From Fonticula-like sp. SCN 57-25 (lineage: Eukaryota): a DNA stretch of 20,000 bases. Location of the stretch: assembly GCA_001724245.1 (NCBI GenBank), contig MEDX01000003.1:59787-79786 (forward strand), given 5' to 3'. The notes under the pieces are model-generated. The model saw only the letters and a list, made by a program, of their open reading frames with translations. It did no database searches and was not told the DNA's origin. This document shows positions 1 to 12,348 of this stretch, piece after piece. Numbering within the stretch: the first letter of the stretch is position 1; the number at the start of each line of letters is the position of its first letter. The position numbers were made by a program, and so were the translations under genes.

Positions 1-1716
1 CGGACGCTGCGTCGATCTCGTCCACCCTCGAGCCGAGCGCGTCGCAGTTTTCTAACTTTGCTCCTCTCCCCGCTGCCCCCGAGTCTTCCTCTACGGAGGC
101 GCTTCCCGAGCTGCGCCATGTTTTCGTGCGGTGTGCGCTCCTCTCGTACTGGGATGACCGCGAGGGGCCAAAGATCGAGCGCGTGTGGCGGAGCACCCAG
201 GATGACTCTGACGAAGACCTGTTGATGTACGTGTCGCGCCACACACTAAACGGCGAGATGATGCGCCCGTCGACAGAGGACATTGAGCCGCGCCTCTACG
301 TCCTCGGCGATCAAGGTGCGCAGGTCTTAATTGCGCAAGCTCCTCCGGCTAACACTGACCTGCAGGCGTCGCCGTAACCTCCTTTATCTTTTCGGGCTAC
401 AGCGGCGCGCAGACCTCTGCGCTCACGCTGAGCAAGTACTCTCTGTCAGTGCTTGTCCCGATGCATCTTCTCCAGCCCTACCTCGTTTACTACCCGCTGA
501 TCGCCGAGCGGCTCCCCCGTATCCTCGCGCGGCATCGTGTCGTCCAGAAAAAGGTACAAATTTGTTGTATCCCCGCCGCCGCCGCTGACGCCGCGCCCTT
601 GCCAGCTTGCCGTGGCGCCCCTTCCTGCCGGCGGCCGTCGCCCGAGCTCGGCGGACCACCTCTCGCGGCCACTGCTCGAGATGCTGTGCTCAATGGAAGA
701 GCTGTACGAGCACCACATCCCCGCCGACTACTCGCTCAGCGAGACCATCTTTGGGTCCGAGTATGAAGGGACGTACTCTGACCGGCCGTTCCTGTGGCGC
801 GCCTTTTCGTCGCACCTGCAGACGCACTGCCGGACGGTCGTGCTCGGCCACGACCTCCACACAGTCAACATTTTTATCAACTCGCTCGCGCTTCTCATGC
901 CACTCGCGCAGCGCAAGTGCTCCAGGCGCGCGCGCAAGGACACTTTCCGCAAGAATTTGAATGTTTTCTACCCCGAGGCGTTTGTCCAGGGGCTCATTTT
1001 GACGGTACGCGCGGTAATGTTTCGCGGCGGCGGCGCTAACTGCTTGCTGCAGCCCGACACGGACCGCGCGAGCATCCTGCAGGACATGCACGCGCTAGAG
1101 TCGCCCTTCCCGGTGACCGTCGTGGACCTGACGCGGCAGCTCGTCGAGCAGACCGAGGTGCTCAGCGCGTACTCGCGCACGCGCGACGAGTGCTTCAAGG
1201 ACGAGCTCCAGAACGAGCACACGGCAGAGACCGCCGCCTCCCTCATTGCGTGCGCACTTTTGACATTTATTTATGACGCCACGACTCACGCAGGAGCGCA
1301 GCAGCGGTCTGTTCCGCCCAACAAAAGAGTTTGCGCCCTTTGTGAAGCAGATGATCGCCGAGGCGTACCGCCTGCCGTACGCGCTGCGCAAGCAGCACCT
1401 GGCAGAGTCTAGGCGCATCGTAGAGCGCCGCGCACAGTCGCTCCTGACGCGCGTCGACGAGCACATCCAGTGCGCCCCTTTGCCGCCTATTTCTTTTTTC
1501 TGACCACTTCTTTTCAACAGAGACTCTGCCGCGAGCCGCAATTTGCCGCACACGGTGCTCAAGCGCGTCCGGGCCGAGCTCGGCCTCGACGACAACATTT
1601 CGTTCTACATTGTGCTGGCCGAGGCCGAGCGGATGCGGCCGGGCTCGTTCATGGAGATCCTCGCCGACCCGCACTCGATGGCCGAGAACCTGCGCGAGAT
1701 GATGGACGGCTTCTAG
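1..1716 (+). CDS. C9orf72: C9orf72-like DENN-family protein, 5'-partial; introns 316-365, 554-605, 1005-1052, 1250-1301 (acceptor uncertain), 1470-1520
   Basis: Spliced translation contains LSYWDDREGPKIERVW, SRHTLNGE, FLWRAFSSHLQTHCRTVVLG, FVQGL, PFPVTVVD and VLAEAERMRPG, collinear with C9orf72 motifs (FAYWDNILGPRV, HTLNGE, FLLNAISSHLQT, ALAEKIKPG). The frame is open from the window start and ends in TAG at 1714-1716. Confidence 0.9.
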
Positions 1717-3011: not shown

Positions 3012-4841
3012 ATGGCTGACGTGGAAGCCGACACTGCTGCCGGACTGGATGTCGCGGCGGCTTCCATCCCCGAGTTTGTTAGAAAACTGTTTCGGTACGT
3101 CGGGAGGGGTTGCTTAGGGGGAGATTGTGGCGTGCGTGTTAAAGTGATCTCGGCGCTAACACGCTATTTAATGCGCGCAGCATGCTGGACGATCCCACTT
3201 CGTCCGAGGTCGTAGAGTGGGCAGAGGATGGCGCGTCCTTCATCGTCAAGGACACGAACGAGTTTTCCAAGGAAGTCCTCCCAAAGCATTTTAAGCATAA
3301 CAACTTTGCTAGCTTTGTGCGCCAGCTCAACAAGTACGACTTTCACAAGGTGAAGGCGTCGGCGGACGGCACCGGCAAGCGCTACGGCGATTTTGCCTGG
3401 GAGTTTAAGCACCCCAACTTTACGCTGCACAGCATCGACCAGCTGAGCAATATTCGCCGGAAGCCGCCGTCGTCCAAAAAGTCGTTTGGCAAGGAGGAGT
3501 CCGAGGGCGTCAACATGATGCAGACGATGACCATGGTCCCCGGCGCCGTCCCGTCGGCCCCCGAGGTCAACCTGCTCAACCTTGGGCAGGCCGATCTCGC
3601 CAACTACCTGCAGACGCTCTCCAAGAACTACGAGACCGTCGTGCGTGACATGGTCATGGTGAAGCGCAACATGGCGGCGCAGGATCAGCTGATGCAGCAC
3701 CTCTTGCAGTACCTCGTCAACCGCGAGACGGGCAGTGCGTCTCTTTGTTTTTTTCTCTGACTGCGCTGACCCTTTTACCGCAGCCGGCGCGATTTCAAAT
3801 ATCAACCTCGCGAGCCTGCAGTCGGCGTCTGGCTACGGCGACGCGGCCGCGCGCCCGATGTCGCCGCGCCTGACCGCGCCGATGATCCCTTCGCACCTTC
3901 AGTCGCCGCAGCAGGGCGCGCTGGACCCTTCGATGTCGCCCGCCTCCATGCCGTACTCTGGCAACGTTGGCGTGCCGTCGGCGGGCATGCCGATGTCTGC
4001 CTTTTCGTCGACGCCCGCTATGTGGTCTCCCGCCGAGCTGCCGTCGTACGCCGCGTCGGCTTCGTTCGAGTCGATGGGCAACGCGACGTACCCGCAGCTG
4101 TCCGAGTCGTCCGTGAGCGCCATGGAGGAGCTGAGCCGCCGGAGCGGCACGGGCGCCGAGCCGCTCACCGTCACGACGCTGGGCATGCTGCGTCTGCGCG
4201 AGACGCCCGCCGAGCCGTCGTCCCCGCGGGCCTCAAACTCGATGCGCGTCGTACGCCAGACCTTTGTGCCGTCGTGGTCCGTGCCGCCCAAGGTGCTGCT
4301 CGTCGAGGACGACGCCACCTGCCGCATGGTCGCATCAAAGCTCCTGCAGATTGCGGGGTGCACTTTTGAGGTCGCCCACGACGGCATGGAGGCCGTCAGC
4401 AAGATGAACCTCGACAAGTACGACATTGTGCTCATGGTACGCCGCCGCCTGCGCGCACATGTTGTCATTTATTTTGGCCGCTAACGCATGGCACAGGACA
4501 TTCTCATGCCCAACATGGACGGCATCTCGGCGACGACGCAGATCCGCCAGTTTGACCCGGCGACGCCCGTCATCTCGATGACAACCAACACGTCGCGCGC
4601 AGACATCATGCGCTACATTGACACTGGCATGAACGACGTCCTCGGCAAGCCCTTCTCCAAGGAGAGCTTGATGACCATCATCCAGCGGTACTGCTCCCAC
4701 CTCGTCGACTTTCTCCAGAACCCCGGGATCGCGCCGGGCCGCGTCGACAACACGCAGGGCGGCGCGACCATCACCGAGGAGGAGGAGGCGGCCGACACGG
4801 TGCCGCCTAGCAAGAGGCTCAAGTCCGAGGTCTCCTTATAG
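3012..4841 (+). CDS. SKN7: Skn7/Prr1-like transcription factor (HSF-type DNA-binding domain, coiled coil, response-regulator receiver), ~544 aa; introns 3095-3180, 3735-3783, 4437-4496
   Basis: HSF domain EFVRKLFRML...LPKHFKHNNFASFVRQLNKYDFHKV...WEFKHPNF. Receiver domain WSVPPKVLLVEDD...YDIVLM|DILMPNMDG (phospho-acceptor Asp intact) ...ISMT...DVLGKPF. Confidence 0.95.
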
Positions 4842-4893: not shown

Positions 4894-5463
4894 TGCTGTT
4901 CGTTTCAATCTAGTAGTAGCTCGACGCCGTTGCGTCATATATGTTTGCGTTCGGAGCATGGCCTTTTCTCCCCTCTTGTCGTTTCACGCACGCGTCGCCA
5001 CCAGAGCTTGCGCCTCGCTGCGCGACATTTGTCGATGATCCACTGTGCCTTGTGTATTTCTAGTTAACTCGTTCTGGTCTTCTTTTGCGGCAGGTGGCTC
5101 CCATCTGCATTTCATGGCGTGTAGCTTTATGTGGATACTATGATACTAGCTTGTTGCCTCTGTGACGCACGAATGAATATGAACCTCTTTTACAATTGCC
5201 CCATTCCCGCGCTGAAACACCATTGGTCCACTTCAAACCGTGCGACTTTTTGTCATAAACACGGAATAGCGCCATATTTTCACGTTCTTCACCATTCCGG
5301 CCGGATATTTCCTTTTTAAGCAATAAAATTCCCAATATGGCGATGGTTTGCTTTTTCTGACGAATGGCATGCTTAGTGGGAATTGGGGCGAGGGGACCAA
5401 GGTCGGTTTCGTGGTCGGTCTCCAGCTTGTGTTGGAGGCTCCTGTCGAGAGGAGTTGTAAGCG

Positions 5464-7161
5464 ATGGTCCCTGGGGCAGAGATGCTGTCGACGTCGGGCG
5501 GAAGCTCTGTTGCTGCGCCGCCGAGCGGCCTTCGCTTCCGCGTTAACTCGCCTAATGTTCAGTACACGTCTGATCGCATTGTGAGCCGCTTCATGTATGA
5601 GGACACGTCGTGCGAGGTGACGCCGAGCGGCGAGGTTGTGGTGACGCCGAGCACGACGCAGTACACGTTCACGACGAGCACGGCGGTCCCGCGCATGGGC
5701 CTCATGCTTGTCGGCCTTGGCGGCAACAACGGCACGACGGTGGCGGCGAGCATCCTGGCCAACCGCGAAAAGATGGCGTGGCGCACCAAGGCCGGCCTTC
5801 AGCAACCCAACTACTTTGGCTCGCTGACGCAGGCGTCGACCGTGCGCCTCGGCAAGGACCCCAAGGGCGACAACATTTCGATCCCGTTCAAGGACATTCT
5901 CCCGATGGTGAACCCGAACGACATTGTCGTCGGCGGCTGGGACATTAGCGACGCCAATCTCGCCGTCGCGATGGAGCGCGCGCAGGTGCTCGAGCCCGAT
6001 CTCCAGCGCCAGGTTGCCCCCAAGCTCAGCGCCATCGTGCCGCTGCCGAGCATCTACTACCCCGACTTTATCGCCGCCAACCAGAGCGAGCGCGCCAACA
6101 ACGTGATGCGCGGGTCAAAGCAGGACAACCTGGAGCAGGTCCGCAAGGACATTCGCGACTTCCGCGCCGCCAACCAGCTCGACTCGGTCGTCGTCCTGTG
6201 GACCGCCAACACTGAGCGTTACGCCGACATCGTAGAGGGCGTCAACGACAGCGCCGACAACCTGCTCGCCGCCATCAAGGCGGGCCACTCGGAGGTTTCG
6301 CCGTCGACCGTGTTTGCCGTCGCCTGCATCCTCGAGGGTGTCCCGTTCATCAACGGATCGCCCCAGAACACTTTTGTCCCGGGTTGCGTGGAGCTCGCCG
6401 AGCGTCACCGCGTACGTTTAATGTGTTTGTAGTGTACCTTTTTATCGTTGTTGTTGCACGTCCTTGTGCTTTTGCCTTTTGTTCTTTTACTTTGCTCACC
6501 CCTTTCCGCGCAGTCCATTATTGCCGGCGACGACTTTAAGAGCGGCCAGACCAAGCTCAAGTCTGTCCTTGTTGACTTTTTGGTGAGCGCCGGCATCAAG
6601 CCGCTCTCGATCACGAGCTACAACCACCTCGGCAACAACGACGGCAAGAACCTTTCTGCCCCCTCGCAGTTCCGCTCCAAGGAGATCTCCAAGAGCAACG
6701 TGGTCGACGACATGGTCGCCTCAAACGACGTGCTGTACAAGACCGGCGAGCATCCCGACCACGTGGTCGTGATCAAGTATGTCCCCGCGGTGGGCGACAG
6801 CAAGCGCGCCATGGACGAGTACTACAACGAGATCTTTATGGGCGGCCGCAACACGATCGCGATCCACAACGTGTGCGAGGACAGCCTGCTCGCCGCGCCG
6901 CTGCTGCTCGACCTCGCCATCATCACCGAGCTCTTTTCGCGCATCCGCTTCACCAAGGGCGAGAGCAAGGATGCCGAGCCGCAGCCGTTCCACCCGGTGC
7001 TCTCGGCGCTCAGCTACCTGCTCAAGGCGCCGCTCGTGCCCCGCGGCCAGAATGTCGTCAACTCGCTGTTTAGGCAGCGCCAGGCGCTCGAGAACATTCT
7101 GCGCGCGTGCGTTGGGCTCCCGCCGCAGAACGACATGCTCCTCGAGGAGCGCGCGTTCTAG
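5464..7161 (+). CDS. INO1: Myo-inositol-1-phosphate synthase, ~531 aa; intron 6412-6513
   Basis: All four MIPS signatures are present: [30 protein letters not shown] and [10 protein letters not shown], plus [11 protein letters not shown] and CEDSLLA. The start ATG is not certain. Confidence 0.98.
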
Positions 7162-8847: not shown

Positions 8848-9152
8848 GACTCAGCTCATAACATTTTTGATATTCATTGTTGTGTTTTTGCATTTTTTTG
8901 CCTCTCTACCTGTGTACAATATTGATACTTGCATTTCGTCAACCTGATCCTAAAACGAAAGATGCATTATTGGTTATTATTTCTTTGCTTCTCCACAGGT
9001 GCACTCTATTACTAAAAGAACAACAGCACAACTCTATAGCAAATGTGACTATGCATAATGTTGTGCTTTTTACAAGTATGCATCGTACCTATTTGTGTCA
9101 CTCTGACTCTGACGCTTGCAGACAGATCCATCCACGTGGCCAAACGGTGAGG

Positions 9153-12013
9153 ATGCCGGCGTTCAGCCCTGCGGCGCCGGTGGCCGGCAGCATCGAGCTG
9201 AGGAGCGCGCGGCTCACATGGGAGCCTGCCCCCGGCGCGCTCTCGTATGAAGTATTAATAAGCAACACGGCGGACGGCACCAACGCGCCGCCCATTCGCA
9301 TCAACGGCGGGACCGGTGCGCTGCATTACGGTTGGTTTGCAACTTGCTAACGCCCCGCCTTGCTAGTGAGGGAGTGCGAATTGAAGGGTCTTCAGCCCGA
9401 CAGCTCCTACACGGTCCTTATAGTTGTGAATTTGCGTGATTTGACACTTCGCTACCCCGAAACCACCTTTACAACGCGCGATCCCACAATTGACGCGCTC
9501 ACCCGCGTCGACAAGATCGCCTCCCGCGGAAGCCCCGTGCGCGCACTCCCCACCGTGACGCCGCCCAAGAGCACCCACTACTCGCCTCATTCGCCGCTTG
9601 CCTTGCCGTCGGAGCGGTTCGGACGGACGCTCGACACGTGCGGGATGCGCGCGACGCCTTCCCCATCACCTGCTCGCGATCCGCCTCGATTCCGCCTCGC
9701 CACACAGCCGATCCAGCGGCGATCGCCCGCGCGCCCAGGCCATACGACGGCACCTTTATCGGTTGTTGCGACGCCTCCGCGCCGTCGCGGCTTCCGTGAC
9801 GACACGGACGATCTTTCGAGCGGGTCGGATGACGATGATTCCTCTGCCGGTTCGCCGTTCGCCGTCTCGTCACCTGCAGGCGTCCGCGTGGCGCCGCGCG
9901 AAGCCGTACTGGCAAAGCTTCTCTCATCATTCACAAGCTCTTCCGACGATATTGAAGAGTCATTTGAAGACGATGTAGCAGACGACGTCGATGCCGCCGT
10001 GCATGAGACGGTCGTGTCGGTACGGCGACAGTACGAGGCTAGCGAGCGGCGATTCCTGCGCGAGAGCGCCCGGGAGCACAACACTGACGAAGAAGAGGAT
10101 TTGGACGACGAGCTGGCAGCGGGTCTTCTTGACGTTTCATATCTTCCGACGCACGCGGCAGAGTCGAACGAGCGGCTGTACAGCAGCACGCAAGACGAGC
10201 CCGAAAATGTCGACAATGTACGTAGTCTTTTTGTTATTGAAAGAAAACTAATTTGCTTCAAGGTTGATACGGCGCCATCGTCCGCGACTGTGCCCGACGC
10301 CCACGCTGCACTCAGCATGTCTCAATTGCAGGCCCCGAGCACAAAGACATTCACGCCCGTCGCTGCTCCCGACCCGCCTCGCACGACACCCCAGCAGCAC
10401 GCGAGCGCCCCAATGCCTTTTACTTCACCTTTTATGCCTTCAGCTCCTTTGGCGTCATCTCCTTTTGCCTCACCTTCACAGCCTTCTTCTTTGACGTCAT
10501 CGTCGTCGCCATTTGCTCCATTGGTCTCTTCACCGCCTATTGCTGCAAGTCAGCCCAAGAGCGCCTTCACTCAGCAACCTGTTGCTCAGCAGCCCAAGAG
10601 TGCATTCACTCAACAGCCAGTTGCTCAGCAGCAGCCATTTGCCCAGCAAACCTCTCCTCAGCAGCCATCATTTGCTCAACCCAAGGCACAGCAGCCACCT
10701 GTTGTTCAACAGCAATCTCCTCTGCAAACTGCTCAGCAAACTCCTCTGCAAACTCCTCTGCAAACTGCTCAGCAAACTGTTCAGCAAACTATTGCTCAGC
10801 CCAAGGCTCAACAACCTCTTGTTCAAGCTCAGCCAAAGGTACAACAACCTGTTGCTCAGCCCAAGAGTGCGCCGCCTTCTTCATCAACACCAGCTACCGC
10901 CCCCACTCCAGCTGCCCCGACACCCGCCGCCACTGCGCCACCCACAGAGCCCAAGCGCGTCCCACGTGGCGTCGGGTCGTTTGAAGCGCAGCGCGAAGGC
11001 GAAGCTCTGTCTGACCACTACGACGAGCTCGAAAAGCTCATGACGCAAATCCCGCCGTACGTTCCTTATTACTTTCAGTATCATGAACTTACCTTTGACT
11101 ATTATAGGAATGCGCGCAGTGATGTTGTGCGTCTCAAAATGAATATCAACAAGCGTGTTTCGCAAATCAACGCATCGCTCGAAAAGGCCGTCGAAGTGGT
11201 ACGTTTTCCCGCCTTTTTCTTTCCTTTCTTCCTTGTCACTCATGTGCATTTCAGGCCGTGCAGCTGTCTGACATTTTGGGCGCGTCCGGCGCCCTTCGCG
11301 GCTACGCTCTTCACACGCTCTGCGGCAAGCTTGTCGAGCAGGCCGCGGCGGAAAACAAGACGCGCTCGCAATTCCTTTCTATTTACCAGGCCATTGCCGC
11401 CATGCTGATCGCCGCCAAGCAGCACGACTTTTGGCCCGCGCTGCACGCGCACCTCGCGCGGTCGTGCCCCCACGTGGTGCCGTGGCGGCCGCTGCCGAGG
11501 GAGGGAGAGAGCACACGTGACTTTATGCTGCGGACGGGCCACGTGCTCGACCCGAATAATGCGAGCGGGTTTGAGGACAGCGAAAAGCACATGGAGCGCG
11601 TGTGCGGCATCTTTGCGCTGTACGCGGCGTTTATGCAGCTACCGACGCCGGCGGTGCTCAAGCACCCGCATAATGCGAGCAGGGCGTGGACGTGGGCGGC
11701 GCGGTATATTAATTTGGCGCCGCAGAGCGCGTCGCTCGATGTTTTCGGCGTGTTTTTAAAGTTCCTGGGGGATGATCTGATGCGCGCGTACGGCGGGCAG
11801 GCGATCAAGATGTTGATGTGCGCGCGGGGGCCGTTTGCGGAAAAGTACGCCGAGACGCACGCGACGGGCAAGTCGGCTGTTGTGCGGCTGCAGATCTTTA
11901 TAGACGACATGATCAAGCACAAAAAGGTGTCGATCGCGCTCGGCGAGCTGGACCCGGCGCTCTTTGAAAAGGCGCTGCAGGACCAGCAGATCATCTTTGC
12001 AAAATTCAAATAA
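9153..12013 (+). CDS. GLE1: Gle1 mRNA-export factor with an N-terminal fibronectin type III domain and a long low-complexity linker, ~885 aa; introns 9316-9366, 10218-10262, 11057-11107, 11199-11254
   Basis: The C-terminal region (KRVSQI, KLVEQA, AHLARSCPHVVP, HMERVCGIFALYAA, HPH...AWTWAARYIN, YGGQAIKML) matches GLE1-domain motifs. The frame is continuous from the FN3 exon. The start could lie further upstream because the frame is open to 8877. Confidence 0.85.
10551..10866 (+). repeat. Coding Q/P-rich tandem repeats inside GLE1
   Basis: 39-nt duplication (QPKSAFTQQPVAQ x2) at 10551-10628, 12-nt CAAACT(CCTCTG/GCTCAG) units at about 10725-10790, and recurring AQPK. Confidence 0.8.
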
Positions 12014-12348
12014 CTTATGCATTATCATTGTACTTTTAATACAGTCTGTATCATTCTTCTTTTGCTTTCGGTATGCGTGCATATGGCTCAGGCTGTATTA
12101 TGGGCGACATATCAAGGAACAAGCGTCGTACTTGACATGCACATAGGCACAATGCATTGCTCGTTTCATGTGTCTTTTTCCAAGCACTAGCACCCCTTGC
12201 TTCATGCTTATAGTCCTTGCTTTGCGCGGCGCGTTCAGGCCACGCTGCCGTTCGCGCCGCCGCCGCCGTTGCATTTGGCGCGCTCGCAGGGGCGGATTCC
12301 GATTGTTGTTTGGTGACAGGCATCCCGTGCGCGCGCCAAAACGCGGTC

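Follow-up and report, generated by a model that had tools for sequence, protein, structure and literature searches.

A predicted Gle1 gene with an FN3-type N-terminus in Fonticula-like sp. SCN 57-25

Background

Does a gene for the mRNA-export factor Gle1 in Fonticula-like sp. SCN 57-25 begin with a fibronectin type III (FN3) domain, and if so, what might such a domain do there? The question arises from a stretch of 20,000 nucleotides (nt) of this organism's genome (GenBank assembly GCA_001724245.1, contig MEDX01000003.1, positions 59,787 to 79,786), here called the window, in which an FN3-like sequence lies ahead of a GLE1 domain. The analysis described below indicates that positions 9153-12013 of the + strand are probably one five-exon gene, whose product would consist of an FN3-type beta sandwich, a low-complexity linker and a GLE1 domain. 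The N-terminal stretch, modelled from its sequence, very probably takes up a real FN3-type fold.

Gle1, which is essential and linked to disease, regulates the final step of mRNA export. Its C-terminal domain (CTD) is better understood than the way in which the N-terminal half positions and oligomerises the protein at the pore. Human GLE1 carries an N-terminal motif that binds Nup155 and a coiled coil through which the protein self-associates. In a preprint (bioRxiv 10.1101/2021.10.26.465790), the Gle1 CTD is described as binding Nup42 and activating Dbp5/DDX19, in a manner dependent on inositol hexakisphosphate (IP6), at the cytoplasmic face of the pore. The same role would be expected of the GLE1 domain described here. 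The predicted protein of the window is like canonical Gle1 of yeast and human (PDB 3PEU/3RRM, 6B4F and 7TBL) in its C-terminal GLE1 domain, whereas its FN3-type N-terminus and the Pro/Gln-rich segment that precedes the GLE1 domain are its own.

Organisation of the gene

The window has the character of eukaryotic nuclear DNA, with 53-63% GC, AT-rich spacers and short introns. The elements of the gene model, with the evidence for each, are as follows (amino acid positions, aa, are those of the spliced protein):

8850..9152, + strand: AT-rich upstream region, probably promoter and 5' untranslated region (UTR); GC fraction 0.34-0.38 in 100-nt windows over 8850-9099
9153..9315, + strand: exon 1, start codon and first FN3-like half (strands A to C'); translation, GC content at third codon positions (GC3) of 0.83, codon score, strain variant
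9165..9479, + strand: FN3-type beta-sandwich domain, about aa 5-95, split by intron 1; Pfam, PDB phmmer, AlphaFold2, Foldseek, VIA-align
9316..9366, + strand: intron 1, 51 nt, phase 1; GTGCGC...CTAAC...TAG, in-frame TAA, no frame-0 coding score
9367..10217, + strand: exon 2, second FN3-like half (strands E to G) up to about 9479, followed by linker sequence that is first basic and Pro/Ser/Arg-rich, then acidic; translation, composition
10218..10262, + strand: putative intron 2, 45 nt, in frame, stop-free; GTACGT..AAG, GC 0.29 against about 0.6 in the flanks, donor identical to those of introns 3 and 4
10263..11056, + strand: exon 3, low-complexity linker rich in Pro, Gln and Ser, with tandem repeats that keep the frame, and at its end the start of the GLE1-homologous region; composition, repeats, colinear matches from aa 565
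11057..11107, + strand: intron 3, 51 nt, in frame, stop-free; GTACGT..TAG, GC 0.31, homology
11108..11198, + strand: exon 4, N-terminal part of the GLE1 domain; homology, synonymous strain variants
11199..11254, + strand: intron 4, 56 nt, frame-shifting; GTACGT..CAG
11255..12013, + strand: exon 5, GLE1 C-terminal domain and TAA stop; Pfam GLE1, human and yeast Gle1 matches

The five exons sum to 2658 nt, that is, 885 codons and a stop. All introns of the gene are of the GT..AG type, 45-56 nt long, with either GTACGT or GTGCGC as the donor. Introns 2, 3 and 4 have the donor GTACGT in common and contain 29-43% GC, compared with 48-69% in the exons. Intron 1 has GT..AG ends and a branch-like ctaac motif, and it is required because an in-frame stop codon (TAA) lies inside it; the codon that it splits encodes V whether or not it is spliced. 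Intron 4 is likewise required, since without it frame 0 would not lead into the reading frame of the main GLE1 exon. The splicing of intron 2 is putative, since this intron is both stop-free and in frame. For intron 1, an alternative donor at 9331, which would give an intron of 36 nt, was rejected as too short and as a poorer fit to the spacing of FN3 domains.

The GLE1 domain and the segment that precedes it

Exon 5 alone matches the Pfam GLE1 family (PF07817) with 97.7 bits and an E-value of 9e-28, over profile positions 69-248 of 250, and thus passes the gathering cut-off of 24 bits. It also matches the structures of human GLE1 (6b4f and 7tbl) at 8.6e-20 and those of yeast Gle1 (3peu and 3rrm) at 1.3e-5. 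When 1.84 billion representative proteins were searched with exon 5, 540 matched at E<=1e-3. The only close match among them, P0001, is the window's own open reading frame (ORF) fragment; identity falls to 33% for the next, and the best named relative is from the chytrid Synchytrium microbalum. Exon 5 had no relative among the metagenome contigs scanned with it, and a word-based search with exon 5 against longer proteins gave no match. Seventeen positions of the GLE1 domain are near-invariant (at least 90% conserved in 89 homologues), and 15 of these are kept; at one a Tyr has become His, and one is not aligned. These matches point clearly to a genuine, canonical-looking GLE1 domain at the C-terminus.

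The segment upstream of this domain is of another kind. For comparison, the best 150 of the 540 library matches, P0001 included, were taken as the homologue set, and 149 of these (89 + 60) were scanned with Pfam. The 150 residues before the GLE1 domain contain 20.7% Pro and 6.7% Glu, Lys and Arg together, while the medians for the same span in the homologues are 2.7% and 27.3%, and none of 110 is as extreme; the comparison covers the 110 of 149 homologues that have enough upstream sequence, and composition serves in it as a proxy for a coiled-coil-type segment. The span belongs to a low-complexity linker of about 470 residues that follows the FN3-like part and is first basic, then acidic, then Pro/Gln-rich. 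By this proxy, the charged, proline-poor, coiled-coil-type segment that usually stands upstream of GLE1 appears to be missing, and a Pro/Gln-rich linker appears to take its place.

A Gle1 of this form could also be a specialised paralogue, that is, a diverged second copy in a genome that encodes a canonical coiled-coil Gle1 as well, and such an origin would be compatible with a real FN3-GLE1 architecture. A second copy would fit the atypical N-terminal half and a GLE1 domain whose identity to the library representatives listed does not exceed 33%, but the identities within alignments A1 and A2 show that about 30% is ordinary for Gle1 proteins from distant lineages, and the retention of the near-invariant positions also argues the other way. 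A specialised paralogue is rather unlikely.

One gene or two

The original prediction placed the FN3-like and GLE1 parts in one continuous frame. Frame 0 is indeed stop-free over 9351-11408 (685 codons), which carries it across the linker, but most of the GLE1 domain, in exon 5, lies in a different frame and is reached only through intron 4. The residues of the FN3 pattern were found where they had been described: frame 0 runs from the ATG at 9153 to 9315, and resumes after 9316-9366 to about 9479.

Base composition and homology bear on the same connection. Windows of 100 nt with less than 45% GC occur only at 8850-9099, at 11050-11149 (intron 3 and exon 4) and at 11950-12099, and therefore no spacer of the intergenic type separates the FN3-like part from the GLE1 domain. 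At the other end of the linker, spliced residues 561-634 match GLE1 homologues in colinear fashion within the set of 150 (P0007, E 1e-4; P0006, 6.7e-4; P0002, 7.4e-4). Once intron 3 is removed, residues 565-628 align with residues 144-203 of P0007, exactly as the colinearity of exon 5 predicts. Exon 4 by itself matches residues 245-266 of P0002, where 248 was expected, and bit scores go up when the spliced protein replaces exon 5 alone (from 102 to 135 for P0002).

Coding signal was followed with a codon-usage score trained on 1055 codons from conserved genes of the window. In exon 1, frame 0 scores best (-0.02 bits per codon, versus -1.09 and -0.66 in the other frames) and GC3 is 0.83; over 9369-9479 of exon 2, frame 0 is again the best. 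In-frame ATGs are also present upstream, at 9051 and 9078. However, over 9051-9152 the codon score favours no frame and GC3 is 0.44, and since this stretch thus lacks a coding signal, 9153 is the likeliest start, and the two upstream ATGs are probably unused. A stretch of the form GTATGC...CAG (about 9076-9121) resembles a possible 5'-UTR intron. Tandem repeats at 10551-10858 (+), which encode the Gln/Pro-rich linker, have periods of 39, 18, 12/24/36 and 33 nt, all of them multiples of 3.

Further evidence comes from DNA contigs of a related strain (run X2), which cover the gene in part. Of 44 differences, 40 were classed, as 23 synonymous, 14 nonsynonymous and 3 intronic; the numbers are small. 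The only indel among these 40 of 44 is a 1-nt insertion at 11224, within intron 4, and this intron also carries two substitutions in the related strain. All three exonic differences in the FN3-like part (9305, 9407 and 9416) are synonymous third-position changes, and all four variants in exon 4 are synonymous too.

Several observations nevertheless weigh against a single gene. In exon 3, a region of low complexity, the codon score does not prefer frame 0, and open stretches of other frames span 10268-10984 and 10495-11043. Met148 (9645) is a possible internal start, and none of the 21 listed runs that contain the locus is on record as RNA. The DNA contigs of four of them show no splice joints in the gene, parts of which they leave uncovered. 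An artefact of the gene model might therefore be considered, with the FN3-like exons lying outside the Gle1 protein. Translation could begin at an internal Met such as aa 148, with 9153-9644 being a 5' UTR, an upstream ORF or an alternative first exon; or the low-complexity region could hide an intron that changes the frame and so ends a separate small FN3 gene. Apparent merged models are found in GLE1 database entries, one of them combining GLE1 with an aspartyl protease. Such an artefact is unlikely, however. Besides the stop-free frame and the missing AT-rich spacer, the FN3-like exons have a strong frame-specific codon bias and a high GC3, unlike a UTR, whereas 9051-9152 does look non-coding; the variants in the domain are synonymous without exception, and the repeat periods of the linker all preserve the frame. 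The open frame, the composition and the colinear homology together support a predicted gene model in which the FN3 and GLE1 parts are joined.

Two further points concern the strains. Run X2 represents a slightly diverged strain, in which most of the nonsynonymous differences cluster near the repeat region 10551-10858. Near-identical pieces of the gene (9000-12100) are found in runs X2-X6, which come from several studies and from bioreactor, wastewater, aquatic and fungus metagenomes.

The FN3-type domain at the N-terminus

The remote searches for FN3 were made with a read-through of 9153-10217, in which the TAA of intron 1 was replaced by X; as a result, 17 intron-coded residues lie inside the domain. 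Even so, Pfam fn3 is the top match of this query, with an E-value of 0.0093 and 16.6 bits, and pairs residues 16-90 with profile positions 13-66 of 84. When PDB sequences were searched with phmmer, all five matches at E<=10 were, by their molecule names, FN3 domains or FN3-containing chains (we take 5g56 to be one of the latter). The best of them is fibronectin, 1j8k_A, at E 0.043. In the alignment, 'ltWep' falls on the Trp stretch of 1j8k_A and 'elkGLqPdSsYtV' on its 'elqGLrPgSeYtV'. In the read-through, 31 residues separate the two FN3 halves; leaving out the intron reduces this to 14, compared with 13 in 1j8k_A. The core residues of FN3 domains are present, namely the Trp of strand B, the Tyr of strand C, and the Leu..P...Y of strands E-F (the tyrosine corner), if the aligned stretches are presumed to correspond to these named strands. 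By inspection, the N-terminus appears to lack a signal peptide.

Structure prediction leads to the same fold family. AlphaFold2, run on the read-through without an alignment, gave an all-beta model with a mean predicted local distance difference test (pLDDT) score of 62.8 and a predicted template modelling score of 0.55; confidence is lowest across the intron-coded insert. The best rows returned by Foldseek, with E-values of 3e-3 to 1e-2, are FN3 domains and monobodies. VIA-align, which compared the model with 48,161 representative chains, gave a best Z of 9.7, for tenascin 1tdq_A (root-mean-square deviation 3.4, 92 residues aligned), and 38 chains with Z>=8. Almost every top row is an FN3 domain; of the 50 best rows, 3 are variable domains of antibodies or T-cell receptors. 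The best structural neighbours are the FN3 domains of tenascin, integrin beta4 and fibronectin. The predicted model is a beta sandwich of the FN3 type, with moderate support, as the model is of low confidence. The identity proposed in the original prediction is borne out by these results, with the qualification that they were obtained on the read-through.

Taken singly, a number of these results count against an FN3 domain. The fn3 score of 16.6 bits is below the Pfam gathering cut-off of 25 bits, with a query that includes the 17 intron-coded residues and the X, and neither exon 1 nor exon 2 by itself matches fn3 in Pfam. The AlphaFold2 confidence is low, for a single sequence with the same insert. 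Foldseek gave no match at E<=0.001, and with VIA-align, best Z values of 7-8 are common in the absence of a true relationship, so that 9.7 is only moderately higher. An orthologue with the same N-terminus was found neither in word-based protein searches with the read-through nor among metagenome contigs; in addition, spliced residues 1-110 and 1-340, compared by phmmer with the 150 GLE1 matches, gave nothing under E 0.1. It is nevertheless very unlikely that the N-terminal 95 residues are a disordered and unfolded Gle1 N-terminus with a chance resemblance to FN3, an explanation that would suit the sub-threshold fn3 score, PDB sequence matches that all have E>=0.043, a low-confidence model and Foldseek E-values of at least 3e-3, but not the agreement of four independent read-outs on the fold family, the colinearity of the two halves only without the intron, or the hydrophobic content of aa 1-100, which at 14-16 per 50 residues is like that of the GLE1 domain and not like that of the linker (7-11). 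An FN3-type fold is favoured because individually weak-to-moderate lines of evidence agree, and do so only after the intron is removed.

Compared with known FN3 domains (Pfam PF00041), the domain of the window would have in common the pattern of core residues and a predicted sandwich of the seven-strand type. It would differ in being a single copy, in scoring below the Pfam cut-off on the read-through, and in lying within an mRNA-export factor of the nuclear pore.

Is the architecture known?

No FN3-Gle1 protein was known to the original prediction, and the homologues are in keeping with this: fn3 was found in 0 of 149 GLE1 homologues and GLE1 in 149 of 149 (Pfam, E<=0.01, a threshold that the read-through of the window passes), so the arrangement is not widespread among them. 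Its novelty is tempered by two metagenome ORFs from other organisms, which came to light when the N-termini of the homologues were clustered all against all. P0085 contains a Filamin match at 226-313 (1.6e-17), Invasin_D3 at 56-116 and GLE1 at 402-630, and P0111 contains Filamin at 2-69 (1.1e-4) and GLE1 at 243-456. Since repeats of the filamin type, which are immunoglobulin (Ig)-like, stand N-terminal to GLE1 in both, an Ig-like sandwich before GLE1 has arisen elsewhere and is not unique to the window.

P0085 and P0111 are like the protein of the window in having such a sandwich N-terminal to GLE1 within one ORF. Unlike it, they belong to the filamin/ABP280 sandwich family, carry several copies, and are rich in Lys, Glu, Ile and Asn. 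Their N-termini have no detectable similarity to that of the window, and their GLE1 domains are 27-29% identical to the one described here. Judged from these sequences, the filamin-GLE1 and FN3-GLE1 forms are probably independent fusions. A full-text literature search found no report of Gle1 with a fibronectin type III domain and none of Gle1 with a filamin repeat, and a search for P0085 in the ESM Atlas gave no usable match. FN3 with GLE1 would thus be a new arrangement among the homologues examined, a modest and unproven novelty, given that the GLE1 family itself is well known.

Two other homologues have additional domains. P0037 has an aspartyl protease C-terminal to GLE1, and P0105 has RIP and ricin-B lectin domains N-terminal to it. 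Most simply, both would be merged models of neighbouring genes.

What the FN3 domain might do

FN3 domains do occur inside cells, for example in titin and in the tail of integrin beta4, and both of these proteins are among the structural matches of the FN3 model. By analogy, a single cytosolic FN3 domain would be a module for protein-protein docking or for self-association. In the protein of the window, it might take over the job that the N-terminal anchor motif and the coiled coil perform in canonical Gle1, namely keeping Gle1 at the pore, in an oligomer or both; stimulation of Dbp5 would remain with the CTD. With the coiled-coil-type segment apparently gone, the N-terminal half has no compact module other than the FN3 domain, which is therefore the best candidate for docking to a pore component or for the pairing of Gle1 molecules. 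That this role is derived from analogy only is a point against it.

The filamin-repeat forms suggest that the same role could be filled in another lineage. It is conceivable, if doubtful, that the anchoring or oligomerisation region of Gle1 has been replaced independently more than once by Ig-like modules, FN3 here and filamin in P0085 and P0111, which would supply pore docking or self-association. If this were true, the way in which Gle1 is held at the pore would be evolutionarily interchangeable and, with the filamin-repeat forms, FN3-Gle1 would show the N-terminal function to be modular. A natural Gle1 with a compact, easily expressed FN3 domain in place of the coiled coil would also offer a simple handle on the tasks of the N-terminal half, whether it docks, dimerises or does both. 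The surprise is moderate, as the arrangement comes from a single uncultured lineage and domain accretion is common in eukaryotes.

Neighbouring genes and affinity

The ORF at 501-1412 (+) matches the C9orf72-like family (Pfam, 5.2e-15), which to our knowledge is missing from most fungi, and it may help to place the lineage. The region 3143-4484 (+) encodes an HSF-type DNA-binding domain (3.8e-31) and, after it, a response-regulator receiver domain that scores below the cut-off (2.1e-5), an arrangement that we take to be Skn7-like. Other neighbours encode an FHA protein, eRF1 and a HIRA-like WD protein.

The gene at 5461-7161 (+), two genes upstream of that for Gle1, encodes inositol-3-phosphate synthase, with which the synthesis of inositol phosphates begins. 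Its position near a gene for IP6-dependent Gle1 is probably a coincidence. The synthase is 57-63% identical to the enzymes of chytrids, mucoromycetes and basidiomycetes and, together with the neighbouring genes and the chytrid-like best GLE1 match, suggests a fungal, possibly early-diverging, affinity for the lineage.

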